64,000 nt of DNA from an uncultured Vicinamibacteraceae bacterium (GTDB taxonomy: Bacteria; Acidobacteriota; Vicinamibacteria; Vicinamibacterales; UBA8438). Position 1 is the first letter of the stretch, and every line of letters begins with the position of its first letter. The position numbers were made by a program, and so were the translations under genes. The notes beneath the pieces are model-generated. The model saw only the letters and a program-made list of their open reading frames with translations, ran no database searches and was not told the DNA's origin. Below are positions 346 through 64,000 of the stretch, one piece after another. The stretch lies in NCBI GenBank assembly GCA_964646815.1, contig CAZYFH010000012.1, positions 16,641 through 80,640 of the forward strand. The letters are read 5' to 3'.

Positions 346-420
346 GTGAGTATTCGTGTGTCTCGCGGGTTGCGCGAACGTGATAGAACTCCAGGTGTGT
401 CGGCGCGGCACTACCGGTTG

Positions 421-2961
421 ATGAGCGCACGGGACCCTCTGCGAGCGACGACTCGTTGCGTGGCCGCATCGATGCTCGCGCTGCTGCTCCCGGCTGGGCT
501 CGTGGCGGGCGGCGCGGGCGGGACCCGCTCGGCGACCCGATCCCAGGCCTCCCAATCGACGTCCGGCTCAGCTGACGTGACGTGGGACTTTGAGACCGGC
601 GACCTGCGCGGGTGGACCACGTCAGGCGACGCGTTTGTCTTCCAGCCCACCCGGGGTGACAACCCCGCCTCTCGCCAGTCCGCCTCCAACCACGAGGGCG
701 ACTACTGGGTCGGCACCTTCGAGCGGTACCAGGGTGGACCCACGGAAACGGCCGGCACGACACAGGGCGAACGCCCGCAAGGCACGCTCGACTCACCCGC
801 GTTCGAGATCCCGCCGGGTCCGCTCAGCTTCCTCGTCGGCGGCGGCAACGAGTTCGCGACCCGCGTGGAGCTCGTGGTGATCTCCGCAGCGGAGGGAGAG
901 AGTCGGGCGCTGCATGCCACTGGACGCGGTTTCGACGCGATGGAGCGGGTGACCTGGGACCTAACGCCATTTGCCGGGCAGCGCGGGCGGATCCGCGTCG
1001 TCGACGCGTCGTCAGGCGACGGTGGCTACATCAATATCGACGACATCCGGTTCGCGTCGATTACGGTACCGAACGTCGTGGGCCGCGACGAGGCGACCGC
1101 GCGCCGGGTGCTCGAGGGCCGAGGGTTGACCCTGGGTGCCGTCGAGCCGGTCGAGTCCCGCGTGGCCGAGGGACGCGTGCTTATGCAGGACCCCGGAGCG
1201 GGCGCTCGAGTCGAGCCGGGGGCGCCCATTGCCGTCGGCGTTGCACAGCTCGCGCTGGTGCCGGTACCGGACCTTGTGGGACGCAGCGAGTCGGACATCG
1301 ACCGGCTGCTCGACCGAGCGGACTTGTCGCGCGGACAGATTCGCCGTGAGGAATCAGGTCGGCCGCTAGGGACGGTCGTCTCGCACGTGCCGGCCGCGAA
1401 TGCGCGCGTCCCGATCGAAACCGCCGTCGATGTCGTCGTGGCGGTGCCGGTGACTGTACTGGTGCCGGATCTGGTCGGCCGCGACGTGGACGACGCCGAC
1501 CGGGTGCTGGTGGATGCGGAGCTCGAGCGTGGTCGCGTGCGTCGCGAGGAATCACGCCGGCCGCTGGGGACCGTTCTGTCGCAAGCGCCAGCGGGCGGTG
1601 ACCGGATCGCCATCGACACGGCGGTTGACCTGGTCGTGGCGACCCCGGTGATCGTAAGTGTGCCGGATCTCGTCGGCCACGAGGTCGCGGCCGCCGACGC
1701 GCTGCTGCGCGAGGCCGAGCTAAGACGCGGGCAGACGGCGACCGAGGAATCGCGGGAGCCTGAAGGCGTGGTGCTGGCGCATGATCCTCCCTCAAGCCGC
1801 CGGGTGGCGATCGAGACCGACGTCGATTTGGTCGTTGCAGCGCGGGTGACGGTGCTGGTCCCCGACCTCGTCGGCCGCGACGCGCCGGCCGTCGACGACC
1901 TCCTTCTGCGTGCGGAGCTGACGCGTGGCACGCTTGAGCGCGAGGAATCCAGGGAGTCGGTTGGCACTGTGCTGACGCAGACGCCGGTGGCCGGCACGCG
2001 GGTCGTGATTGAGACACCGGTGGCGCTGGTCCTCGCGGTGCCGCCGACGGTGGTCATGCCCGATGTCGCTGGCCTGGTGGAGGCCGAAGCGCTCGACCTG
2101 CTCGACGTCCACGAGCTCGGCCTCGGCGTGCTGGCGCATCGGGAGTCGCCGACGGGTATCGGTCGCGTCCTGGAGCAGTGGCCGGCGGCCGGCACCCGCG
2201 TCGACATCGGTACCGGCATCGACCTCGTCGTCGCTGCGATGGAGACCGTGGAGATTCCGACGGTCGTCGGCTTGTCGGTCGACGCGGCCCGCCAGGTCCT
2301 CACGGCGCTGCGGCTGGATATCGGTGACGAGACGCGACAGGCGTCCCGAACCGAAGAGGAAGGGATGGTGCTCGAGCAGCACCCGCCGGCCGCGACGCGG
2401 GTCGCCGTGGGTTCGGCGATCGGCCTAGTGCTGGCCGAGCCGGAGATGGTTGCGGTCCCGGCGATCGTCGGTCTCGGGGTTGACGAGGTTGCCGGCGCCC
2501 TCGACGCTTCGGGGCTGGTTTCCGGACACGTCGAGCAACGGTTCTCGCTGGAGCCGGGTGGTACCGTGCTTACGCAGAGCCAGCCGGCCGGCACTTTGTT
2601 GGAGTTCGGCGCGCCGCTTCCTTTCGGCGTCGCACGCGATCGGATCACCTGGGTGGGGCCGATTGGCGCGCTGCTGATCGTCGGTCTCGTCGGACTTGTG
2701 GCGAGACGGGTCAGGTTCGGGCGGACGAAGGAGCCGCCGGCGAGATCGACACCACCGCCGGAGGTGGCACCGGGTCTCGCCGTCGGCGTGCGAGGGCATC
2801 GCGATGCAGGCAGTCAGGGGATCCCCGACAAAGCGCGACCGACGACCCGCGTCGCCATTCGGCTTCGGCCACATGTTGACCGCGGCACGCAACAACTAGA
2901 GGTCGAGGGCACCGCCGCGAACCTTGGCCGATTGATAGCGCGCGAACGGAGGCAACGGTGA
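421..2961 (+). CDS. Membrane-anchored surface protein: signal/anchor, jelly-roll-like N-domain, 8 tandem PASTA domains, C-terminal TM helix and about 95 aa tail
   Basis: ORF 346..2961; ATG 421 gives MSARDPLRATTRCVAASMLALLLPAGL. Eight units of about 66 aa of type VPDLVGRxxxxAxxxLxxAxLxxGxxxxEESxxPxGTVLSQxPxxGxRVxIxTxVDLVVA match the PASTA consensus. Hydrophobic WVGPIGALLIVGLVGLVA near the C-terminus. The stop overlaps the next start (GTGA). Confidence 0.85.
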   Translation: MSARDPLRATTRCVAASMLALLLPAGLVAGGAGGTRSATRSQASQSTSGSADVTWDFETGDLRGWTTSGDAFVFQPTRGDNPASRQSASNHEGDYWVGTFERYQGGPTETAGTTQGERPQGTLDSPAFEIPPGPLSFLVGGGNEFATRVELVVISAAEGESRALHATGRGFDAMERVTWDLTPFAGQRGRIRVVDASSGDGGYINIDDIRFASITVPNVVGRDEATARRVLEGRGLTLGAVEPVESRVAEGRVLMQDPGAGARVEPGAPIAVGVAQLALVPVPDLVGRSESDIDRLLDRADLSRGQIRREESGRPLGTVVSHVPAANARVPIETAVDVVVAVPVTVLVPDLVGRDVDDADRVLVDAELERGRVRREESRRPLGTVLSQAPAGGDRIAIDTAVDLVVATPVIVSVPDLVGHEVAAADALLREAELRRGQTATEESREPEGVVLAHDPPSSRRVAIETDVDLVVAARVTVLVPDLVGRDAPAVDDLLLRAELTRGTLEREESRESVGTVLTQTPVAGTRVVIETPVALVLAVPPTVVMPDVAGLVEAEALDLLDVHELGLGVLAHRESPTGIGRVLEQWPAAGTRVDIGTGIDLVVAAMETVEIPTVVGLSVDAARQVLTALRLDIGDETRQASRTEEEGMVLEQHPPAATRVAVGSAIGLVLAEPEMVAVPAIVGLGVDEVAGALDASGLVSGHVEQRFSLEPGGTVLTQSQPAGTLLEFGAPLPFGVARDRITWVGPIGALLIVGLVGLVARRVRFGRTKEPPARSTPPPEVAPGLAVGVRGHRDAGSQGIPDKARPTTRVAIRLRPHVDRGTQQLEVEGTAANLGRLIARERRQR
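1066..2649 (+). repeat. Tandem array of 8 x about 198 nt coding repeats (PASTA units)
   Basis: Recurring GT(G/C)CC(G/C)GA(T/C)CT(G/C)GTCGGCCGCGA motif at a period of about 198 nt. Units 2-5 are the most similar at DNA level. Confidence 0.8.
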
Positions 2962-5450: not shown

Positions 5451-6794
5451 ATGACCACTATCAGATCCTGGGGCGTCCTGTTGCTCGCGGGTGCGGTCGG
5501 CGGCCTGCTGCCCGGTACCGCGGGCGCGGCCGAAGACGAGGTGCCGACCTTCACCAAGGACATCGCGCCGATCTTCCAGGCCAAGTGCGAAGCGTGCCAT
5601 CGGCCCAACTCGATCGCCCCGATGTCGCTTGCGACCTATCAGGAGTCGCGTCCGTGGGCGCGGTCGATCCGGGACCGGGTATCGACGCGGCAGATGCCAC
5701 CGTGGCACATCGACCGGACCGTGGGCATCACCGAGTTCAGCAACGACCGCTCGCTGACCGACGCGGAGATCGACGCGGTCGTCAGATGGGTGGACGGTGG
5801 CGCGCCGCGCGGGAACCCCGCCGATATGCCGGCGCCACGCGCGTGGCCGGACGAGTCGAAGTGGTATTTCGCGGATCAGTTCGGCGGGCCGCCCGATCTC
5901 ATCGTCAAATCTGAGCCGTACACGATGCCGGCCGAGGCGAACGACGCTTGGTGGAAGCCGGTTGCCGAGACCGGGTTGACCGAACCGCGCTGGGTGCGGG
6001 GCATCGAAATGCGACCCGGCAGCGTAGCTGGCCGGCGAATCACCCATCACGCAATCGCGCGACTCCAGCAGGAGGAGACCGATCCGCTGCTGCAGAACGA
6101 CGCGGCCATCGCCGACGATGATCCCCTCAACAACTCCGGCCTGTTCATGGAGTGGGCGGTCGGCAAGCAGGGCGAGCAGATGCGACCGGGCAGCGGCAAG
6201 CTGATGCTGCCGGATTCTCAGATCGTGTTCGACGTTCACTATTCGGCGGCAGGCGAGGAGATCACGGATCACGTCGAGCTCGGCATCTACTTCTATCCGA
6301 AGGGCGAGGAGCCGGAGAATCGACAGGTGCTCCACTTGATGGGCGCCACCGGTGGCGGGTCACTCGACATCCCGCCGCATACCGTCGCGGTGACGGAGGG
6401 CTTCTATCCGCTGAAACGGGCCGCGCGCATCGAGAGCTTCCAACCGCACATGCACCTCCGCGGCAGGGCGATGTCGATGGAGGCGATCCTCCCGACCGGA
6501 CGGATCCAGACGCTGAGCCACGTCGGGAACTTCAACTTCAACTGGCACAATAGCTACGTCTACGGTGCCGACGTCGCGCCGCTGCTGCCGAAAGGCACCA
6601 TCGTCAAGGTCACCGCGTGGCACGACAACACGGTCAGTAATCGCGCCAATCCTGACCCCAACGTCTGGGTGGGCTACGGCGACCGGACCGTTGACGAGAT
6701 GGCGCACGCGTGGGTCAATGTGACCTACTTCACTGATGAGGACTACGAGGCTGAGGTGGAGAAGCGCGAGGTGGCAAGAGCCGACGAGAACTAG
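5451..6794 (+). CDS. Secreted heme-c domain fused to a PHM/DBH-like copper monooxygenase fold
   Basis: ATG 5451 follows GAAAGGA and gives the signal MTTIRSWGVLLLAGAVGG. CxxCH (KCEACH) and an MPPWH motif near the N-terminus. HH (6045-6050), H (6237-6239), HxH (6447-6455) and M (6699-6701) are spaced 63/70/82 codons, against 64/70/70 for H108-H172-H242/H244-M314 of PHM. Confidence 0.7.
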   Translation: MTTIRSWGVLLLAGAVGGLLPGTAGAAEDEVPTFTKDIAPIFQAKCEACHRPNSIAPMSLATYQESRPWARSIRDRVSTRQMPPWHIDRTVGITEFSNDRSLTDAEIDAVVRWVDGGAPRGNPADMPAPRAWPDESKWYFADQFGGPPDLIVKSEPYTMPAEANDAWWKPVAETGLTEPRWVRGIEMRPGSVAGRRITHHAIARLQQEETDPLLQNDAAIADDDPLNNSGLFMEWAVGKQGEQMRPGSGKLMLPDSQIVFDVHYSAAGEEITDHVELGIYFYPKGEEPENRQVLHLMGATGGGSLDIPPHTVAVTEGFYPLKRAARIESFQPHMHLRGRAMSMEAILPTGRIQTLSHVGNFNFNWHNSYVYGADVAPLLPKGTIVKVTAWHDNTVSNRANPDPNVWVGYGDRTVDEMAHAWVNVTYFTDEDYEAEVEKREVARADEN

Positions 6795-6835
6795 TGGCCA
6801 TCCGTAGGGCAGGGCGTCAGCCGTGCCTCGCAGGG

Positions 6836-7786
6836 ATGAAGCCCTGCGCCATGACACCACGCTGGAGCCCAGAATTTTGGGCTTCGCGGAGGGTCAGAGT
6901 AACGATACCGATGTGGCTCGTGCGTTTCCTTGTCCCGCTCATCGCAGTCGCGCTCATGGTAGGACCGGCGGTGGTTGCCGAGGCGCAACCGCCCAGAGCA
7001 CCCCTGCCACTGGAACCAGAGGGCGATCGCGGCGAGGCAGTGTTTCCGGCTCTCGAGGGCTGGTACCGCAACGCCGACGGCAGCTACACGATCCTGCTCG
7101 GCTACTTCAACCGGAACATGGTGCCGGTCGACATCCCAGTGGGACCCGACAATCAGATCCAACCGGGCGGACCCGACATGGGGCAGCCGTCGCATTTTCT
7201 CCCCCGTCGCGGCTGGGGGGTGTTCGCGGTCACCGTGCCAGAGGACTTCGGTGACACGAGGCTCACGTGGACGCTCGTCGCCAACAATCAGCGGTCCGAG
7301 GTGTCGTTCTGGTTAAACCCCCCCTACTACGTCGATCCGTTCTTGAATCGGGCGAACGGCAACGAGCCGCCGATGCTCACGGTGAGATCTGGAGGGGGCG
7401 AGCATCAGGGGCCGCCGCGAGGCATTGCGACGACCTACATCGCCACGGTCGGGGAGCCACTGGTTCTGACCGCATGGGCCCGCGATAAGCCGCTCGTTGT
7501 GCCACCGCCGCCGCGCCGCAATCGCGGCGGTCAGCGACGCGAGCGTCCGCCACTAAGCGTCACCTGGCGAAAATTCCGTGGGCCGGGCGAGGTGACCTTC
7601 GATGAGGCGACGCACGAGTACGCGAGCCTCGAGGGCGGAGAGTCAACCGCCTCGGTCACGTTCGGCCAGCCAGGCGAGTACCGACTGGCGGCGACCGCCA
7701 ACGACATCTCGGGGAACGGCGGTGGCGGCGACCAGTGTTGCTGGACGACGGCGCATGTCGACGTGACCGTGACTCGGCCGCGGTAG
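6836..7786 (+). CDS. Secreted protein of unknown function (C-terminal GGGGDQCCW motif)
   Basis: ORF 6794..7786. Hydrophobic MWLVRFLVPLIAVALMVGPAVVAEA. The start is ambiguous (ATG 6836 or ATG 6911). It sits between the PHM-like and PAL-like genes on the same strand. Confidence 0.6.
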   Translation: MKPCAMTPRWSPEFWASRRVRVTIPMWLVRFLVPLIAVALMVGPAVVAEAQPPRAPLPLEPEGDRGEAVFPALEGWYRNADGSYTILLGYFNRNMVPVDIPVGPDNQIQPGGPDMGQPSHFLPRRGWGVFAVTVPEDFGDTRLTWTLVANNQRSEVSFWLNPPYYVDPFLNRANGNEPPMLTVRSGGGEHQGPPRGIATTYIATVGEPLVLTAWARDKPLVVPPPPRRNRGGQRRERPPLSVTWRKFRGPGEVTFDEATHEYASLEGGESTASVTFGQPGEYRLAATANDISGNGGGGDQCCWTTAHVDVTVTRPR

Positions 7787-7857
7787 ATTTTCGAGCTTGC
7801 ATCCGAAGGGCTCTCGGTGTCACGCTTTGCGCAGCGGGTTTGGTGGGAGGAATCTAG

Positions 7858-9087
7858 ATGATCCGGAATTACAGCATTCTCGGTTTGGTGGTGCTCGCGG
7901 CGGTCGTCATCGCAGGTGGCGGCATGATGGAAGAGATGCCAGCCGAAGCAGCGATGGCAAATCAGGCGCCCGGCCCGACGACTGGCGACGGCGCTCCGAT
8001 GTTCGAGGTCGATCCCTTCTGGCCGAAGCCGATGCCTAACAACTGGCTGCTTGGCTCGACGATCGGGGTGGCAGTCGATTCGCGCGATCACGTCTGGATC
8101 GTGCACCGCGGCAACCTCAGCGCGAACGAGACGCCGGCCGCCCAGGACCCGGCGCTGGCCGACGAGTGCTGTGCGCCAGCACCGCCCATCCTCGAGTTCG
8201 ATCCTGAGGGCAACCTCGTCGGTCACTGGGGTGGCCCGGGTGAGGGATACGACTGGCCTGATTCCAACCACGGCATCGCCCTCGACAACATGGACAACGT
8301 CTGGATCGGCGGGAATGGCGGCGCCGACTCGCACGTGCTGAAGTTCACGCGGACAGGCGAGTTCCTGCTGCAGGTCGGGGAGCACGATCACGAGGGTCCC
8401 GACAGCCTGTCGACGACCCGGTACTCGCAGGTAGCGAAGGTGAGATACGACGCCTCGGCGAACGAGGTGTACATCGCGGACGGCTATGGCAACAAGCGCG
8501 TCGCGGTCGTCGATGCCGATACCGGCGAACTGAAACGGTTCTGGGGCGCCTACGGCAACGAGCCGAGCGACGCCGCGCTGCCGCGCTACGACCTTGCCGG
8601 CGCACCGGCGCACGGCGCCGTCAGCACCGATAAGTCTGGCACGCCACAGTTCCGGAACCCGGTGCACTGCGCAGATCCCACAAACGATGGGCTCGTCTAC
8701 GCATGCGACCGTCCCGGGAATCGCGTCCAGGTCTTCCAGACCGACGGCACCTTCGTCGAGGAGATCTACCTGAAGACGCAGACCCTCGGTGCGGGAGCCG
8801 TCTGGGACATCGCGTTCTCGCGTGACCCCGACCAGACCTTCGCGTACGTCGCCGATGGGATGAACGAGAAAGTGCACGTCCTGCGCCGCAAGCCGCTCGA
8901 GTACCTTTACAGCTTTGGCCGCGGCGGTCGGATGGCCGGACAGTTCTACGGCACGCACAGCATCGAGACTGACTCGCAGGGGAACATCTACACGACGGAG
9001 ACCTACGAGGGGAAGCGCGTCCAGAAGTTCGTCTACAAGGGGATGGGGAACCCGACGGGCGACATTGGCGTCGCCTGGCCGCAGTAG
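7858..9087 (+). CDS. NHL-repeat six-bladed beta-propeller, peptidyl-alpha-hydroxyglycine alpha-amidating lyase (PAL)-like
   Basis: GGAGG lies 8 nt upstream of ATG 7858, with an N-terminal anchor. Motifs IADGYGNKRVAVVD, DRPGNRVQVFQTDG, VADGMNEKVHVL and TYEGKRVQKF resemble the PAL and NHL blades. Confidence 0.75.
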   Translation: MIRNYSILGLVVLAAVVIAGGGMMEEMPAEAAMANQAPGPTTGDGAPMFEVDPFWPKPMPNNWLLGSTIGVAVDSRDHVWIVHRGNLSANETPAAQDPALADECCAPAPPILEFDPEGNLVGHWGGPGEGYDWPDSNHGIALDNMDNVWIGGNGGADSHVLKFTRTGEFLLQVGEHDHEGPDSLSTTRYSQVAKVRYDASANEVYIADGYGNKRVAVVDADTGELKRFWGAYGNEPSDAALPRYDLAGAPAHGAVSTDKSGTPQFRNPVHCADPTNDGLVYACDRPGNRVQVFQTDGTFVEEIYLKTQTLGAGAVWDIAFSRDPDQTFAYVADGMNEKVHVLRRKPLEYLYSFGRGGRMAGQFYGTHSIETDSQGNIYTTETYEGKRVQKFVYKGMGNPTGDIGVAWPQ

Positions 9088-9121
9088 CCTCCTTGCGGGT
9101 TACCTCGTGACGTCAGTTCAG

Positions 9122-9156
9122 AAAGGCCGGGCGCAACCGCCCGGCCTTTCGTTTGT
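9122..9156 (+). terminator. Intrinsic terminator-like hairpin after the NHL gene
   Basis: Perfect 12-bp stem AAAGGCCGGGCG / CGCCCGGCCTTT with a 4-nt loop, followed by CGTTTGT. Confidence 0.6.
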
Positions 9157-9195
9157 CGAGTCGCGGGTGTCTGGTTTATTGTCGGAGCGGGGCCG

Positions 9196-9687
9196 ATGAC
9201 ACGGGGGAGCAGGATGCGACAGACCGGGTGGTTGCTCGTTGGGGTCGTCGTGGGGATGGTCGGCTGTGGCGCCGAGGCGCCGGCAGGTCCACCGCTGGAC
9301 ATGAGTCATTCCGTCCAAGATCTGATGTCCGGAATGATCGATCCGGCTGCCGACGTCCTATGGGACGCTGTTGGTACTACCTTGGACGTGAACGGCGAGA
9401 CGTATTGGGAGCCGGAAACCGAAGAAGACTGGATTGCCGTCCGGGCCGCAGCGATGACCATCAAGGAGTCGGCCAACCTCTTGATGCTCGGCGATCGGCC
9501 TCGTGATCAAGAAGGGTGGATGCGCCACTCCCGGGAGATGGCTGACGCCGCTGAGGTGGCGCTCCAGGCGGTCGCGGCGCGCGACGCCGACCGGGTATTC
9601 GACGTTGGGGAAACGGTCTACAACACCTGCAACACTTGCCACAGTCTGTACTGGATCGGGGACGAAGAGCGCGGTCGGATTCAGTAG
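9196..9687 (+). CDS. Class II (cytochrome c'-like) c-type cytochrome, lipoprotein
   Basis: LLVGVVVGMVGCGAEA lipobox-like signal and a single CxxCH (CNTCH) close to the C-terminus. Alternative start at ATG 9214. Paralog of 20736..21260. Confidence 0.65.
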   Translation: MTRGSRMRQTGWLLVGVVVGMVGCGAEAPAGPPLDMSHSVQDLMSGMIDPAADVLWDAVGTTLDVNGETYWEPETEEDWIAVRAAAMTIKESANLLMLGDRPRDQEGWMRHSREMADAAEVALQAVAARDADRVFDVGETVYNTCNTCHSLYWIGDEERGRIQ

Positions 9688-9724
9688 ACGATAGCCGGCC
9701 GCGGGCGAGCGCCGTAGCCTGGTC

Positions 9725-10126
9725 CTAACGACATACCGTCGCGTCGAGGCTCTGCGTGCCCGCGTTCCTGGGCGATACGTGCGCCGCGTTCAACAGATAC
9801 AGCCGGTAGGTTCCGGGGTCTCGTCCGGGATTGCCACAAAGCGTCACCTGATCCCCGCGTTGGAGCGCGTAGGCGCTGAGTCCTTGACGCTGAAGCCGTT
9901 CCGCTGCCCGCCACTCGACGGCCCACGTCCGGACGTATCCGTTGTGCTCGTGCACCAGGACGTGGAGTACAGAGTGGGGATTGTCGAACAAGAAGGATTC
10001 CACCTTCCCCTCGATCGTCACCGTCCGCTCGACGTCGTATATCTCCGAGATCGCGTGGTGGGCATGGACCGGGAGGCCTACCAGAATGAGGGCGATCGGA
10101 GCTAGCAAATGCAGGGTCGGTTTCAT
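9725..10126 (-). CDS. Small secreted protein with predicted mature N-terminus HHAISE (unknown family; paralog of 23499..23912)
   Basis: ORF 9725..10177. ATG 10126 gives MKPTLHLLAPIALILVGLPVHA|HHAISEIYD..IEGKV..NPH. About 110 aa mature. Confidence 0.7.
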   Translation of the reverse strand: MKPTLHLLAPIALILVGLPVHAHHAISEIYDVERTVTIEGKVESFLFDNPHSVLHVLVHEHNGYVRTWAVEWRAAERLQRQGLSAYALQRGDQVTLCGNPGRDPGTYRLYLLNAAHVSPRNAGTQSLDATVCR

Positions 10127-10240
10127 GGGTCGTGTTCCACAAAGTCCGAGTCTCGCGGACGCGCCCGTACTCGCCACGTGCGACCGCCAGTCTCGGTATC
10201 ATAGTGTGAAGACGGCCGACACGGTTCCTGAAGTTTGCCT

Positions 10241-10255
10241 GAACTGTTTCAGTTC
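10241..10255. promoter_or_regulatory. Perfect palindrome GAACTG-TTT-CAGTTC in a divergent promoter region
   Basis: Seen between the HH-protein gene (-) and the response regulator gene (+), next to a CCTGAA direct repeat. Its function is unknown. Confidence 0.25.
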
Positions 10256-10342
10256 GGGCAGCCGGCACGTAATGGCCTCGAGCGGATGCCTATCACCACT
10301 TCGCCGTCCTCTGGAACCCCGGTCCGCGCGGACGAGGGGACG

Positions 10343-11035
10343 ATGCGGACGCCACGCGTACTCGTTGTGGAGGACGAGCAAAAGGTCGCTAACGCCCTTC
10401 GTCAGGGGCTAGCGGGCGAGGGCTACGAGGTGGTCTGTGAGTCGTCGGGCGAGTCGGCATTCTTTCGCTTGACGACCGATCACTTCGACGTGGTCCTTCT
10501 CGATCTCACACTGCCAGGGCGGGATGGCCTCGAGATTCTCTCGACGGCGCGCCAGCAAGGTCTCGACACGCCGGTGGTGGTGCTGACAGCGCGAAATGAC
10601 ACGGTGGACCGAGTCCTCGGCCTCGACGCCGGGGCGGATGACTATCTCGTCAAGCCCTTCGCGTTCGCCGAGCTGCTGGCGCGTATTCGCGCCGTCGCCC
10701 GACGCGGGCGGGTCGCCGATTCCGACCGCTTGAGCATCGACACGCTGGAGATCGATCGCGCTCGACGAGCGGTTACGCGTTCCGGCCAGGCGGTGGAGCT
10801 GACTTCCAAGGAGTTCGACTTGTTGCACCACCTCGCACGGTACCCACGACAGGTTGTATCGCGCGATACCCTGGCACGCGAGGTCTGGCGCGAGACGGCG
10901 CGCAGCACGACGCTCGACAACGTCATTGACGTCCATATGTCGAGGCTGCGACGGAAGGTCGACGTTGACCAGCCGGTGAAGCTGATTCATACGGTCCGTG
11001 GCGTCGGGTTTGTGCTGCGCGAGGGAACACCGTGA
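10343..11035 (+). CDS. OmpR-family response regulator, CusR/CopR (heavy-metal) type
   Basis: MRTPRVLVVEDEQKV receiver domain. LVKPFAFAELLARIRAVARRG and a winged-helix C-terminus (IHTVRGVGFVL). Confidence 0.85.
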   Translation: MRTPRVLVVEDEQKVANALRQGLAGEGYEVVCESSGESAFFRLTTDHFDVVLLDLTLPGRDGLEILSTARQQGLDTPVVVLTARNDTVDRVLGLDAGADDYLVKPFAFAELLARIRAVARRGRVADSDRLSIDTLEIDRARRAVTRSGQAVELTSKEFDLLHHLARYPRQVVSRDTLAREVWRETARSTTLDNVIDVHMSRLRRKVDVDQPVKLIHTVRGVGFVLREGTP

Positions 11036-12405
11036 CGCCGCGATGGTTGCCGCACACGCTACGCGTGCGTCTCACGGCGTGGCATGTTTCGGTCATGGTC
11101 GTAGTGCTCGCAATCTATGCGTCCATGGTCCTCCTGATCGTGACACGGAGCGCGTCGACCACACTCGACGGTCAGCTCCGGAGCGATTACCGATGGGCGG
11201 CGGAGATGGCGCTGCAGGGTCCGGACGGGTCGCTGTCGTGGTTTGACGGTGACCCGGGGAGTGAGGGGAGTCCGTGGCTGCAGGTGTGGACGCCCGAGGG
11301 TCGGTTGATCTATCGCACGGCGGTCGCTCAACGATTGCCCGTCCCCGAAAGCGAAGCCTTGGTCGACGGCGCCGACGACGAGATCGTGTCGGTGCCGGCG
11401 GGTCCTGTCCCGTTTCGGCTGCTGGGTGGGCGCACCACGATCGGCGACGAGCCGGTCGTCATCCAGGTCGGCCGTTCGGAAGCGCTCATGCGACGCGAGA
11501 TCAGCGACCTGGCGTTCGTGTTGATTCTTGGATTGCCGCTGAGCGTGGCGGCCGCCGGTGTAGGCGGGTACTACTTGGCGCGGCGCGCCCTGGCGCCGCT
11601 GGATCGGATGACGGATCGCGCTCGGGCGATCACGGCAACACAGCTCAGCGAGCGGTTGCCTATCGGCAATACGAAGGACGAGCTGGGGCGGCTGGCCTCG
11701 GTCTTCAACGAGACCCTGGGTCGACTCGAGTCGTCGTTCAGGCAGATGCGGCGGTTCACGGCCAACGTGTCGCACGAGCTCCGGACGCCGCTCACGGCTA
11801 TTCGGAGCGTCGGCGAGGTTGGCCTGCGCGAGCGTCGCGACGCCGCCGCCTACCGGGCCGTCATTGAGAGCATGCTTGAGGATACCGACCGTTTGACCTG
11901 TCTCATCGATCGGTTGTTGACCGTGTCGCGATCGGACCACAGTGACAAGACGCTCTCGGCCGACGCCATTGACCTCGGCGATCTCGCCGACAACGTGACG
12001 ACGCATCTCGGCGTGCTGGCCGAGGAGAAGCAGCAATCCATGGTCGTCGAGCGCGCAGGTCATCCCACCTGCCACGGCGACCAGATCGTGCTCCGACAGG
12101 CCGTCATCAACCTCGTCGACAACGCCATCAAATACACGCCCGTCGGTGGCGCGATCCGCGTCCGGGTTGCTGAGCTGGCGACCGGCTGCGTCCTGGAAGT
12201 CAGCGACACCGGGCCCGGCATTCCCGAGGGACAGGCGCCACAGATGTTCGACCGACTGTACCGTGGACAGTCGCCCGATGAGCGCGGCGGAAGCGGCCTC
12301 GGGCTCGCCATCGCGCGCTGGGCAGTCGAATCCAATCAGGGTCAGCTGAGCTACGAGCCGCGGAACGGTCGCGGCAGCACGTTTCGCATCGAGCTGCCGA
12401 TTTGA
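11032..12405 (+). CDS. Sensor histidine kinase, CusS-like heavy-metal sensor type
   Basis: GTGA overlap with the regulator gene. Two TM segments, a HAMP domain, H-box FTANVSHELRTPLTAI, and an ATPase G-box GSGLGLAIAR. Confidence 0.85.
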   Translation: MTPRWLPHTLRVRLTAWHVSVMVVVLAIYASMVLLIVTRSASTTLDGQLRSDYRWAAEMALQGPDGSLSWFDGDPGSEGSPWLQVWTPEGRLIYRTAVAQRLPVPESEALVDGADDEIVSVPAGPVPFRLLGGRTTIGDEPVVIQVGRSEALMRREISDLAFVLILGLPLSVAAAGVGGYYLARRALAPLDRMTDRARAITATQLSERLPIGNTKDELGRLASVFNETLGRLESSFRQMRRFTANVSHELRTPLTAIRSVGEVGLRERRDAAAYRAVIESMLEDTDRLTCLIDRLLTVSRSDHSDKTLSADAIDLGDLADNVTTHLGVLAEEKQQSMVVERAGHPTCHGDQIVLRQAVINLVDNAIKYTPVGGAIRVRVAELATGCVLEVSDTGPGIPEGQAPQMFDRLYRGQSPDERGGSGLGLAIARWAVESNQGQLSYEPRNGRGSTFRIELPI

Positions 12406-12592
12406 TCGCGCTCGCGTTGCCGTGCCGGGCGTCCATCCCATCGTCCCTGACGAAAAGTTCATGAACTCTGCAGGGACGTGCCCGCGGGGTGTTCGCTAGA
12501 CTGATCTTCAGTGCGGCGTCGAGTTTGACGCGTTGTCTTGCCTACTCGATCGCTCCAGCCCGCAATGCGGCCGTTCCAGCAACGAGAGAGTG

Positions 12593-15064
12593 ATGATGGA
12601 CTGGATGAGAGCCTTGGATGTCGCGGCGGTGGCGCGACGATCGGCCGCCACGCGATGCGCGGTCGCCGCGGTAATGGTTGGCGTGATGATGGCCGGTTCG
12701 CCACCGCTCTCGGCGGCGCAAGGTGAGGGCGCCGTATCCGGCACGGTCGTCGATCCGCTCGGAATGCGATTGCCGGCGACCGTTTCCCTGCTGCAGGACG
12801 AAGAGGCGGTGAGCGAACAGGATACCGATGCGAACGGCGCCTTCCGGTTTGATGGGCTCGCCGCAGGGCGGTACCGAGTCGAAGGCCGCGCGCTGGGGTT
12901 CGCCGTGGCGGTGTCCCCCACGGTTTTCGTTGGTGCCACCTCCGAGGTGCGTGTCGATCTCTCGCTACAGATCGGCCCGATCGAGCAGCACGTCGTCGTC
13001 ACCGCCGCGGCCGTCGATCTCCCGCAGTCACAAAGCGGGTCGCCAGTTACCGTGATCGACCGCGACTTACTCGAGCAGTTCGGTAAGGCCGACGTGCTTG
13101 AGGTGCTGCGTCTGGTCCCCGGCGCGTCCGTGGTACAGACCGGCGCGCGCGGATCGACGACGTCGATCTTCCTCCGCGGTGGCGGCGGCAATTTTAACAA
13201 GGTGCTGATCGATGGCGTGCCCGCCAACGACATCGGTGGTGCGTTTGACTTCGGTGCCTTCGCGATGGCGGGTGTGGAGCAACTGGAGGTGCTGCGTAGC
13301 GCCAACAGCGTAATTTACGGCCCCGATGCGCTGAGTGGTGTGATCAGCCTCACGACCCGGCGCGGCGATACGCGACGACCGGAGCTGACGTACGCAATCG
13401 ACGGCGGTAACCTGGCGACGGTTCGCAACGAGTTGTCGGTGGGCGGGGTCGCCGGCCGGTTTGACTACTTCCTCGATGTGTCGCGGTTCGACACCGACAA
13501 CGATCTGGCGAACAATGAGTATCGGAACGACTCGGTGGCGGGGCGCTTCGGGGTCAGGCTCGCGCGTGCGACCGATCTGAACGCCACCGTTCGGCACACC
13601 AAGGCCGACCTCGGTCTTCCCGGCGCGGTCCTGTTTAACGGAATCACTAACGACTCGTCCCAGTCGAACGACTTGATGTTCCTGAGCGTCAACGCGCGCT
13701 CGCAGGTCACCAATCGTTTGCAGACCAATGTCCAGTTGTCGTCGATGGACAGTGGCTACCGTTTCGTCGACCCTGCGCCCACCGGCAAGCCGTTCGACCC
13801 GTTCGGGTTTGGCGCCCATTTCCTCGGCGACGAGGTGACGGTCGTCGGCGCGAACGGCTACCAGGCCACAGGGCGAGCAATCCTGGATTTCGGCGGAGTC
13901 TACCCGTTGGTATACGAAGCCAACTCGGCGCGGCGGATGGTGTCCGGACAGGCGGACTACTACGTGAACGAGGCCTTCGACGTGTCGGCCGGTGTCCGAC
14001 TCAACCGCGAGGAGGGCGTCGCGGGAACGTCGGCCACGACCGAGCGTACCAACGTCGGCTCGTTCGTCGAGGCTCGCTGGGCCGTCGGGTACCGGCTCCA
14101 CCTCACCGGGGGCGTCGGGTTTGAACACAACGACCTATTTGGCTACGCGACGACGCCACGGCTCTCGGTGGCGTTCTACGCGCGGCCGCCGTCGCCGACG
14201 GCGACCGGGGCGCTTAGCGACACCAAGCTGACCTTCAACGTCGGGCGTGGCATCAAGGCGCCGGGAGTGTTAGACGAACAATCATCCCTATTTGCGCTGC
14301 TGCCCGGCGTGCCCGGGGGGATCGATCCCGGGGACCGGATCGGGCCGGAACGCAGCCGCAACATCGATGTAGGGATCGAGCAAGCGTTGTGGGGCAGGCG
14401 CGCCCGCGTGCGTGTTGCCTATTTTCACAACGAGTTCGACGATCTGATCGAGTTCGTCAGCAAGTTTGCGCTGCCACAACTCGGCGTGCCCACGGAGGTC
14501 GCCGCGGGGGTGCCGTTTGGCGCAACGGTGAACGCGTCGTCGTACCGGGCCCAGGGAATCGAGACGTCGATCGATCTGTCGGTCGGCGACGTGCGGGTGG
14601 CGGCGTCGTACACCTACGTCGACGCGATCGTCACGGAGTCGTTCTCCGGGAGCGCACTCTTTCCCTCTATCAACCCCGCGTTCCCCGACATCGAGATCGG
14701 TCAGTTCTCTCCGCTCGTTGGTGCCCGCCCGTTCCGGCGTCCTGCCCACTCCGGCAGCCTCTTCGCGTCCTACCTCCGTGGGCCCGCGCAGGTGACGCTC
14801 ACCGGGTACTTCGTCGGCAAGTCCGACGACAGCACGTTCCTCTCGGATGCCTTCTTCGGGCCGTCGCTCCTCTTGCCGAACCGGGACCTCATCGCGGGCT
14901 ATCAGAAGGCTGATTTGAGCGGCTCCTATCGCGTCCACCGTCGGCTGCGATGGTACGCCAGCATCGAGAATCTGCTCGACCAGGGTTACACGGCGGCAGC
15001 CGGCTTCCCGGCGTTGCCGCTCACGTTCCGTAGCGGACTTTCGGTAACGCTCGGGGGCGACTAG
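12593..15064 (+). CDS. TonB-dependent receptor with N-terminal carboxypeptidase-regulatory-like domain
   Basis: ATGATG at 12593 with a signal peptide. GTVVDPLG..DANGAFRFDGLAAGRYRV, plug motifs (ANSVIYGPDALSGVISL), and a long beta-barrel. Confidence 0.85.
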   Translation: MMDWMRALDVAAVARRSAATRCAVAAVMVGVMMAGSPPLSAAQGEGAVSGTVVDPLGMRLPATVSLLQDEEAVSEQDTDANGAFRFDGLAAGRYRVEGRALGFAVAVSPTVFVGATSEVRVDLSLQIGPIEQHVVVTAAAVDLPQSQSGSPVTVIDRDLLEQFGKADVLEVLRLVPGASVVQTGARGSTTSIFLRGGGGNFNKVLIDGVPANDIGGAFDFGAFAMAGVEQLEVLRSANSVIYGPDALSGVISLTTRRGDTRRPELTYAIDGGNLATVRNELSVGGVAGRFDYFLDVSRFDTDNDLANNEYRNDSVAGRFGVRLARATDLNATVRHTKADLGLPGAVLFNGITNDSSQSNDLMFLSVNARSQVTNRLQTNVQLSSMDSGYRFVDPAPTGKPFDPFGFGAHFLGDEVTVVGANGYQATGRAILDFGGVYPLVYEANSARRMVSGQADYYVNEAFDVSAGVRLNREEGVAGTSATTERTNVGSFVEARWAVGYRLHLTGGVGFEHNDLFGYATTPRLSVAFYARPPSPTATGALSDTKLTFNVGRGIKAPGVLDEQSSLFALLPGVPGGIDPGDRIGPERSRNIDVGIEQALWGRRARVRVAYFHNEFDDLIEFVSKFALPQLGVPTEVAAGVPFGATVNASSYRAQGIETSIDLSVGDVRVAASYTYVDAIVTESFSGSALFPSINPAFPDIEIGQFSPLVGARPFRRPAHSGSLFASYLRGPAQVTLTGYFVGKSDDSTFLSDAFFGPSLLLPNRDLIAGYQKADLSGSYRVHRRLRWYASIENLLDQGYTAAAGFPALPLTFRSGLSVTLGGD

Positions 15065-63110: not shown

Positions 63111-64000
63111 GTGTACGGCAGGAAGTTTCGCCTCCACCGAACGGGACTCGCCTTGGTGGTTTTGGTCACGGTGGTCGCCGGTGTCGCGGCGCAGCCCCCC
63201 GCCACCCCGTATCCTCTCGTCGAGGACTGGCCGCAGCTTCCGACGCGCATGAACGGTGGGGAGTGGGGAGAGACAATCGGTGTGGATCGTGACCCGGACG
63301 GAAACATCTGGGTCCTGCATCGGTGCTTTGCCACCCTGCCCGCCGGAGCGGCCACCTGCGTCGGTCGAGACGACGCCCCTCCGATTCTCAAGTTCACGCC
63401 ATCCGGCCGGTTCATCGGGAGCTGGGGCGAAGGGCAGTTCGCGTTCCCGCACGGGTTCCACATCGATCCGGACGGCAACATTTGGGCGACCGACGCCAAC
63501 GGGAGTGAAACCGTGCTCGGCCTGTCGGCCGAGGGACGGGGGCATCAGGTCTTCAAGTTCAGCCCGACCGGTGAGGTGTTGTTAACGCTCGGGAAGGCGG
63601 GGATCGCAGGAAACGGTCCGGACGCGTTCGACCGGCCGACCGACGTCGCAGTGGCCCCGAACGGTGACATTTTCGTGACTGATGGCCATGGACCCAACAA
63701 CCGCGTGGTGAAGTTCGCGAAGGACGGCCGGTTCATCATGGCCTGGGGACAGACTGGCACGAGGCCAGGCGAGTTCAATCAACCGCACACCATCGCTTTG
63801 GATTCGAGAGGGCGGGTGTTCGTCGGCGATCGGTCGAACAGCCGCATTCAGGTCTTCGATCCTGACGGGACCTTCATCGTCGAATGGAGCCAGTTTGGCC
63901 GACCGAGCGGCATTTTCATCGACGAGAACGATAGTCTCTACGTGACCGACTCGACGTCGAATTCGAGAAACAACCCCGACTGGAAACGAGGGATCTACAT
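63111..64000 (+). CDS. NHL-repeat PAL-like beta-propeller (partial, runs off window end; absent from the supplied ORF track)
   Basis: GTG 63111 gives YGRKFRLHRTGLALVVLVTVVAGVAAQ. Frame open to nt 64000. GVDRDPDGNIWVLHRC, FHIDPDGNIWATD, VTDGHGPNNRVVKFAKDGRF, VGDRSNSRIQVFDPDGTF. Confidence 0.75.
   Translation, partial: MYGRKFRLHRTGLALVVLVTVVAGVAAQPPATPYPLVEDWPQLPTRMNGGEWGETIGVDRDPDGNIWVLHRCFATLPAGAATCVGRDDAPPILKFTPSGRFIGSWGEGQFAFPHGFHIDPDGNIWATDANGSETVLGLSAEGRGHQVFKFSPTGEVLLTLGKAGIAGNGPDAFDRPTDVAVAPNGDIFVTDGHGPNNRVVKFAKDGRFIMAWGQTGTRPGEFNQPHTIALDSRGRVFVGDRSNSRIQVFDPDGTFIVEWSQFGRPSGIFIDENDSLYVTDSTSNSRNNPDWKRGIY

Follow-up and report, generated by a model that had tools for sequence, protein, structure and literature searches.

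Three adjacent genes in a Vicinamibacterales genome

We analyzed a 64,000-nucleotide stretch of DNA, referred to here as the window, from an uncultured Vicinamibacteraceae bacterium (assembly GCA_964646815.1, contig CAZYFH010000012.1, positions 16,641 to 80,640 of the forward strand), and in it three consecutive plus-strand open reading frames (ORFs) that we call gene 1, gene 2, and gene 3. A first-pass annotation had read them as the operon of a split bacterial peptidylglycine alpha-amidating monooxygenase (PAM), with gene 1 as the hydroxylating half (PHM), gene 3 as the lyase half (PAL), and gene 2 as little more than a spacer. All three are present in the ORF list of the window, and products identical to those of genes 1, 2, and 3 were found on public marine-metagenome contigs. 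The host, a marine soil-type bacterium, belongs to the order Vicinamibacterales (Acidobacteriota). In the nearest genome, a Vicinamibacterales metagenome-assembled genome (MAG), identity to the window is 92% for gene 1 and 94% for gene 3. Conservation in gene 1 was scored in two sets: A1, consisting of 47 close homologues, and A2, a 50-sequence alignment whose relatives, at 31-47% identity, were drawn from an exhaustive profile search of cluster representatives. The genes and their sites are listed below (aa, amino acids).

5451..6794, plus strand: gene 1, secreted protein of 447 aa, its exact product on public contigs
Layout of gene 1: signal peptide, aa 1-27; class-I-like cytochrome c, about 30-120; CuH domain, about 145-300; CuM domain, about 305-430
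5586..5600, plus strand: CEACH heme-c motif of gene 1 (C46, C49, H50), invariant in A1 and A2
5694..5696, plus strand: M82 of gene 1, proposed distal axial ligand, invariant in A1 and A2
6045..6050, plus strand: H199 and H200, predicted CuH-site ligands, aligned to PHM H107 and H108
6237..6239, plus strand: H263, third predicted CuH-site ligand, aligned to PHM H172
6447..6455, plus strand: H333 and H335 in QPHMHLRG, predicted CuM-site ligands, aligned to PHM H242 and H244
6699..6701, plus strand: M417 in a DEM motif, third predicted CuM-site ligand, aligned to PHM M314
6911..7786, plus strand: gene 2, the obligate gene 1 partner, a secreted protein of 291 aa that comprises two Ig-like beta-sandwich domains
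7733..7744, plus strand: QCCW of gene 2, an invariant vicinal Cys pair and the only Cys of gene 2
7858..9087, plus strand: gene 3, PAL-like NHL beta-propeller of 409 aa

Gene 1, a PHM/DBH-type protein with a cytochrome c domain

The AF2 model of gene 1, built from 47 homologues, reached a pLDDT of 76 and a pTM of 0.77 and consisted of a helical N-terminal domain followed by two beta-sandwich domains. When this model was compared with the PDB by Foldseek, the top 31 matches were all PHM or human DBH (E 4e-11 to 2e-8), with about 300 aligned columns and a TM score of about 0.6 on PHM length, after which the scores dropped sharply to unrelated jelly rolls with TM < 0.25. The same relationship was obtained from sequence profiles. 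The A2 profile aligned by hhalign with rat PHM (reference sequence 100% identical to 1OPM) at 94.3% probability and an E value of 9.8e-8 over 236 columns, with all six copper ligands in register, including the CuM motif QPHMHLRG of gene 1 against RVHTHHLG of rat PHM; by hmmsearch against the PDB, the A2 profile matched DBH at 3.6e-10 and PHM at 4e-7. Furthermore, Pfam Cu2_monoox_C (PF03712) matched 19 of the 50 A2 relatives and Cu2_monooxygen matched 5. The gene 1 superfamily is thus not invisible to databases, since Pfam detects Cu2 domains in some of its distant relatives.

The copper ligands were conserved throughout. The ligand codons and their spacings of 63, 70, and 82 codons, as first proposed, were recovered as H199/H200, H263, H333/H335, and M417. 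All six ligands were invariant in the 47 A1 sequences, and in A2 they were retained at the CuH site in 50/50 (H199), 49/50 (H200), and 50/50 (H263) and at the CuM site in 50/50 (H333), 50/50 (H335), and 48/50 (M417). Together with C46, C49, H50, M82, and M58 (48/50), they are the sole invariant or near-invariant Cys, His, and Met residues of A2. Judged by profile alignment and model, gene 1 is a PHM/DBH-superfamily protein that has a double beta-sandwich fold and both predicted copper sites. In animals, copper enzymes of this superfamily produce noradrenaline and amidated peptide hormones. The family hallmarks, namely, two copper ions about 11 Å apart and hydroxylation dependent on O2 and a reductant, would presumably extend to it.

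Several searches with gene 1 or its nearest homologues alone weigh against this assignment. Gene 1 itself gave no Pfam Cu2 match at E<=0.1, and Pfam and NCBIfam together returned only a sub-threshold cytochrome c; neither phmmer nor hmmsearch with a shallow profile found PHM in the PDB, yielding weak cytochrome c signals only; and hhalign of the shallow gene 1 profile against PHM gave nothing. By sequence, the PHM relationship surfaced only with the diverse A2 profile. The hidden Markov model searches suggested in the first-pass annotation therefore came out divided: gene 1 on its own failed to match the Cu2 models, but the diverse profile matched PHM and DBH, and gene 3 matched NHL. Taken with the Foldseek, hhalign, and hmmsearch matches and the ligand conservation, the proposed PHM/DBH double beta-sandwich, its two copper sites, and the heme-c module were upheld.

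The heme-c module occupies the N terminus. Cytochrome c matches of gene 1 in Pfam were weak and below the gathering score, Cytochrome_CBB3 matched 33 of the 50 A2 relatives, and helical segments were found at aa 34-115 of the AF2 model. Gene 1 carries a Sec-type signal peptide and no Cys outside CxxCH; because all of its Cys residues sit in the heme motif, it is without the disulfides of PHM. The N-terminal region, according to its motif and its modeled helices, is a class I c-type cytochrome domain with predicted heme attachment, and M82 would serve as the axial ligand.

Next, the substrate pocket was compared with that of PHM. R240 of PHM binds the C-terminal carboxylate of the substrate through a salt bridge (PMC12164859). 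In the hhalign alignment, R240, N316, and Y318 of PHM were replaced in gene 1 by Q331, H419, and W421, and the replacements were invariant in the orthologue group. N316 and Y318 of PHM also help to hold the substrate, as established from the 1OPM complex. Across the subfamilies of gene 1 relatives, these pocket positions varied (Q/F/M/E, I/F/H/N, and W/F/L), and DBH likewise has Gln at the PHM R240 position (SQLHTH versus FQPHMH in gene 1). Because the carboxylate-binding residues are replaced, gene 1 probably does not bind a C-terminal glycine as its substrate in the way PHM does, and the altered, subfamily-variable residues point to different, subfamily-specific substrates. By its predicted pocket and its gene context, gene 1 does not qualify as PHM sensu stricto (EC 1.14.17.3): the peptidyl-glycine residues are replaced, and a consistent coupling to PAL is missing.

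Gene 1 thus resembles PHM (rat PAM core; 1PHM/1OPM; PF01082 + PF03712) in its two-domain beta-sandwich, a CuH site of three His, a CuM site of two His and one Met, the HxH..G and DEM motifs, and its extracytoplasmic location. It differs in an identity of only about 13%, an added heme-c domain, no implied dependence on ascorbate, the lack of disulfides, Q/H/W in place of R240/N316/Y318, an Ig-like partner (gene 2), and the absence of a general linkage to PAL. Human DBH (4ZEL) was the best profile match and shares the fold, the Gln at the R240 position, and the presence of an extra N-terminal domain. DBH, however, is a eukaryotic, ascorbate-dependent enzyme with DOMON and dimerization domains, whereas gene 1 has a predicted covalent heme-c domain and a separate partner protein. 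Heme binding is not known for the DOMON domain of DBH itself.

Relatives of gene 1 are numerous. At least 374 species-level genomes, nearly all from Vicinamibacterales, encode one; this count is a lower bound because the scan used two strict peptide patterns only. The exhaustive profile search placed 16,718 representatives of 50%-identity clusters in the gene 1 superfamily. The architectures seen in this superfamily (P0253, P0265, P0243, P0249, P0250, and P0255; L176 6240..8293) included tandem duplications of the core and redoxin fusions with a transmembrane helix.

Gene 2, the constant partner of gene 1

Gene 2 is not a spacer. The gene 1 neighborhoods were counted in 80 loci fetched from species-level genomes, 77 of which had enough sequence, and in 77/77 a gene 2 homologue (39-86% identity) lay directly downstream of gene 1 on the same strand. 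ORF clustering over the 80 loci found no conserved neighbor other than gene 2; synteny around the pair was at clade level only (glutamate dehydrogenase, aldo-keto reductase, FeoB, esterase, and similar genes), and an Rfam scan upstream of gene 1 found no riboswitch or other element. Among the fetched loci, five contigs labeled as Pseudomonadales, Bifidobacteriaceae/Bifidobacterium, or Gemmatales MAGs (L048, L070, L074, L079, and L082) carried a Vicinamibacterales-type gene 1-gene 2 pair at 65-79% identity and were probably mis-binned in the public MAGs. Two paralogous pairs occurred about 50 kb apart in one genome (L084 and L090, contig CAVSLA010000003.1), indicating that gene 1-gene 2 can duplicate as a unit. 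At 19 loci (L036 12294..13181 and 18 others, e.g., L005 10445..11209), all from a single sub-clade of Vicinamibacterales, gene 2 was followed directly and on the same strand by another secreted protein, about 230 aa long and without a Pfam match.

The unknown secreted protein placed between the other two genes in the first-pass annotation does exist, but its start and the position of its GGGGDQCCW motif were misplaced. The start is most likely 6911 (public gene call) rather than 6836, giving 291 aa with the signal peptide MWLVRFLVPLIAVALMVGPAVVAEA, and GGGGDQCCW is not terminal but sits 13 residues before the C terminus. The QCCW motif is preceded by a Gly-rich loop, and both are invariant. 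The gene 2 family has > 3,000 members, all without annotation. The AF2 model of gene 2 (pLDDT 85) showed two all-beta Ig-like domains; Pfam and NCBIfam returned no match, and Foldseek retrieved only generic tandem Ig-like proteins at TM <= 0.3.

Furthermore, the two genes were found fused. In P0243 a signal peptide is followed by the gene 2 part, with HCCW kept, and then by the gene 1 part; in P0249 and P0255 the gene 1 part precedes the gene 2 part, the P0249 cluster having 19 members of 627-691 aa (JGI, ENA, NCBI, and Logan); and in P0250 the gene 1 part sits between the two gene 2 domains. An internal signal peptide was present in none of these four fusions. The fusions provide Rosetta-stone evidence for a physical complex, which genes 1 and 2 would form as separate proteins. 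Bacteroidota have another kind of partner: a Chondrinema litorale plasmid carries a redoxin gene 9 nt upstream of a gene 1 homologue of 27% identity that keeps CxxCH, HH, PHMH, and DEM and is named "hypothetical protein" in RefSeq, and in P0253 redoxin domains are fused to the cytochrome c-PHM core.

The invariant QCCW raised another explanation for the constant pairing, that gene 1 acts on gene 2 as its substrate and does not take it up as a subunit. The GGGG-D-QCCW segment of gene 2 would then be oxidized to a protein-derived cofactor or cross-link (e.g., of the Cys-Trp quinone type), with the modified gene 2 as the functional product. This explanation would account for the invariance of the motif and its Gly loop, which hold the only Cys of gene 2, for the strict 1:1 gene pairing, and for the lack of a recognizable catalytic fold in gene 2. 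The P0249, P0255, and P0250 fusions, however, are without CCW, so the partnership is independent of the motif, and a permanent fusion of an enzyme to its one-time substrate would be unusual. We consider this explanation very unlikely; the idea of gene 2 as a Cys-Trp cofactor protein was weakened by these same fusions, which indicate that CCW was added in one clade and does not underlie the partnership. A copper chaperone of the CopC/CusF type was also considered as a conceivable role for gene 2.

Gene 3 and its separate module

Gene 3 matched Pfam NHL at 1.3e-11, contains the motif ADGYGNKRV, and matched 3FVZ by phmmer at 1e-4. When the gene 3 family profile was aligned by hhalign with rat PAL (reference sequence 100% identical to 3FVZ), a probability of 96.8% and an E value of 3e-10 were obtained over 277 columns at 28% identity, covering PAL residues 16-313 of 323. 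R84, H138, Y210, R285, and H367 of gene 3 corresponded to R533, H585, Y654, R706, and H786 of rat PAL and were invariant in the family; the catalytic Y210 and the substrate-binding R285 and R84 were present in 50/50 sequences. Of the PAL Zn ligands, two aligned exactly (H138 and H367), and H270 (49/50) was one column off H690. The Ca2+-site residue D787 of PAL is replaced by an invariant S368. Most gene 3 homologues have a lipoprotein-type N terminus. The PAL-like NHL assignment, with its aligned and invariant Tyr, Arg, and two His, was therefore confirmed: by alignment, gene 3 belongs to the PAL-type NHL propellers and keeps most of the PAL catalytic residues, and enzyme activity is predicted for it. 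Compared with PAL (rat PAM 498-820; 3FVZ), it shares the five aligned catalytic or ligand residues and differs in the offset H270, the Ser for D787, an extra invariant vicinal Cys pair, C104-C105 (ECCAP, 8167..8172), and membership in a module without a hydroxylase. An invariant vicinal Cys-Cys pair is thus common to gene 2 and gene 3; a vicinal disulfide, a Cu(I) site, or a cross-link is conceivable.

The following features lie downstream of gene 3.

9121..9150, plus strand: hairpin with a 13-bp GC-rich stem, -36 kcal/mol, z = -5.8, followed by UUUCGUUUG
9196..9687, plus strand: gene 4, cytochrome c'-like lipoprotein with a C-terminal CNTCH
9725..10126, minus strand: DUF6152 (Pfam)
10343..11035, plus strand: response regulator, OmpR-type (Pfam)
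11032..12405, plus strand: histidine kinase (Pfam)
12533..15064, plus strand: TonB-dependent receptor (Pfam)

The linkage of gene 3 to the gene 1-gene 2 pair was restricted to a few genomes. Gene 3 followed gene 1-gene 2 in 6 of the 77 gene 1 loci, all of them close relatives of the window; at about 12 further loci, an NHL paralogue (39-53% identical) was within 10 kb of the pair. When loci were instead gathered around gene 3, the arrangement of the window was absent from all 31 metagenome loci of at least 8 kb, and just two of them had a gene 1-like match, 7-8 kb away and on the opposite strand. In one chromosome of 5,221,827 bp, gene 1-gene 2 occupied a position near 1.63 Mb, and a tandem pair of gene 3 orthologues (85-90% identity) one near 5.08 Mb, a distance of about 3.4 Mb. 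The window's genes downstream of gene 3 recurred after these tandem orthologues, with identities of 70% for gene 4, 56% for DUF6152, 82% for the response regulator, 76% for the histidine kinase, and 65% for the TonB receptor. In L092 (6542..17248) this ordered set, at 56-82% identity, adjoins gene 3 orthologues, and another gene 3 homologue (76% identity) stood beside DUF6152, both without gene 1-gene 2. The chromosomal gene 3 orthologues thus keep the downstream neighbors seen in the window, indicating that the window joins two independent modules. The gene 3 module (7858..15064) has the appearance of a regulated system for uptake or processing in the periplasm.

PAL-like NHL genes are, moreover, multi-copy: two occur in the window, tandem pairs occur elsewhere, and up to four were found per locus, which makes chance adjacency to gene 1-gene 2 plausible. 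The second copy in the window, predicted earlier at 63111, was verified; it runs off the window end (63111..64000) and is 34% identical to rat PAL (E 2e-32). By BLAST it is nearer to rat PAL than gene 3 is and has HR, PHG, PH, and DR motifs, with His at the Tyr654 equivalent (TDGHG). A 443-aa unannotated gene near another NHL gene (L091) was considered as a gene 1 relative and proved unrelated. Elsewhere in the window, an 871-aa protein (346..2961) is built mostly from PASTA-like repeats and has a hydrophobic segment at its C terminus (Pfam PASTA on a public gene call, L009); its ORF shows no evident kinase or transpeptidase domain.

Some features of the window itself count on the other side. 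Genes 1, 2, and 3 lie on one strand with gaps of 116 and 71 nt, and a hairpin occurs only after gene 3; these short gaps and the single hairpin fit co-transcription of the three genes in the clade of the window. The terminator earlier noted at 9122 is a real hairpin (9121..9150), which was absent from the list of a generic terminator scan and was confirmed by folding. It is likely an intrinsic terminator that closes a gene 1-gene 2-gene 3 transcript in this clade, where genes 1 and 2 probably share their transcript with gene 3. This leaves room for a local functional link of gene 1-gene 2 to the PAL-like enzyme in the clade of the window.

Under the split-PAM model of the locus, gene 1 would alpha-hydroxylate a C-terminal glycine or an N-acylglycine, and dealkylation of the carbinolamide by gene 3 would yield the amide and glyoxylate in the periplasm. 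Both enzyme types are present and catalytically plausible, gene 3 keeps the counterparts of all five PAL residues named above, the common strand, short gaps, and single hairpin are as expected of one operon, and the gene order is kept in six species-level genomes. Against it stand the rarity of the adjacency in both counts, the residence of gene 3 orthologues some 3.4 Mb from gene 1-gene 2 in a module of their own, the ease with which multi-copy NHL genes become neighbors, the glycine-carboxylate-binding residues missing from gene 1, and the lack of any role for the obligate partner gene 2. Co-occurrence of the three genes in other genomes, which the first-pass annotation had named as a test, held for gene 2 (77/77) but not for gene 3 (6/77). 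We therefore judge a split PAM unlikely, and the proposed peptide-amidation operon was not sustained. The PHM-like gene beside a PAL-like gene is a clade-specific juxtaposition of two modules and not evidence for bacterial peptide amidation.

A proposed heme-fed copper monooxygenase and its significance

Given the profile matches, the models, and the pairing described above, we propose, with a probability of about 60%, that genes 1 and 2 encode a periplasmic, cytochrome-c-fed two-subunit copper monooxygenase and that gene 3 belongs to a separate module. Electrons from periplasmic respiratory carriers would enter the fused heme c (His50/Met82) and pass from there to CuH (H199, H200, and H263) and on to CuM (H333, H335, and M417), the two copper sites being separate and non-coupled. 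At CuM, O2 would be activated and a C-H bond of the substrate hydroxylated. With the fused heme as the donor, heme would take the place of ascorbate. Gene 2 would be an obligate subunit bound to gene 1, either as an accessory or to present the substrate, and gene 3 would be a Zn-type NHL enzyme of the other module that lies downstream by chance in a narrow marine clade.

The same predicted electron path could also serve a cytochrome-c-linked reductase or oxidase of a small molecule (e.g., nitrite, NO, O2, or peroxide), with the His2Met copper as the catalytic site. The heme-copper-copper relay resembles, by analogy only, that of cytochrome c-fused copper nitrite reductases (NirK), in which a fused c-type heme feeds an electron-transfer copper and then a catalytic copper in the periplasm. 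CuM of PHM binds nitrite, azide, CO, and peroxide in structures among the fold matches (3mib, 3mlk, and 3mll); NosR/ApbE-type genes lie upstream in one context, and organic-substrate pathway genes are not conserved nearby. Nevertheless, copper nitrite reductases are cupredoxin trimers and not PHM-type sandwiches, and their chemistry and copper site types also differ. Denitrification or detoxification genes were not consistently linked to the pair, all characterized members of the PHM/DBH fold are monooxygenases, and the subfamily-variable pocket points to a range of organic substrates and not to a single small molecule. Such a reductase or oxidase thus appears quite unlikely, and we retain the heme-fed monooxygenase as the preferred assignment of genes 1 and 2.

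A full-text literature search, together with reviews, found no description of bacterial cytochrome c-PHM proteins, although its coverage was incomplete and the result is absence of evidence only. By hmmsearch of the PDB, no solved bacterial member was found, only eukaryotic PHM and DBH being matched, and in public databases the relatives are named "hypothetical protein", "cytochrome c", or "YncE-like". What appears to be new here, according to the alignments and the model, is a PHM/DBH-type copper enzyme with a predicted fused heme donor and obligate partner proteins. The result also puts right an over-interpretation that the neighboring PHM-like and PAL-like genes invite.

What is known of the mechanism of PHM, DBH, and TBH, copper monooxygenases whose two copper sites are separate and non-coupled, rests entirely on a few ascorbate-dependent eukaryotic enzymes, and how electrons cross the gap of about 11 Å between the two copper sites is a long-standing question. 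We regard as evenly balanced the wider reading that gene 1-gene 2 represents a very large uncharacterized bacterial branch of the PHM/DBH superfamily, wired to the respiratory chain through heme c and working with obligate partners (Ig-like gene 2, or redoxins in other phyla), which would hydroxylate C-H bonds of substrates new to the class in the periplasm; in the marine clade of the window, the product might pass to the adjacent PAL-like enzyme. If this is true, the built-in heme donor would offer a self-contained and spectroscopically convenient system for inter-copper electron transfer. Non-coupled copper chemistry would then be widespread in bacterial periplasms, in a superfamily that spans several phyla, and a search for new substrates would be opened.

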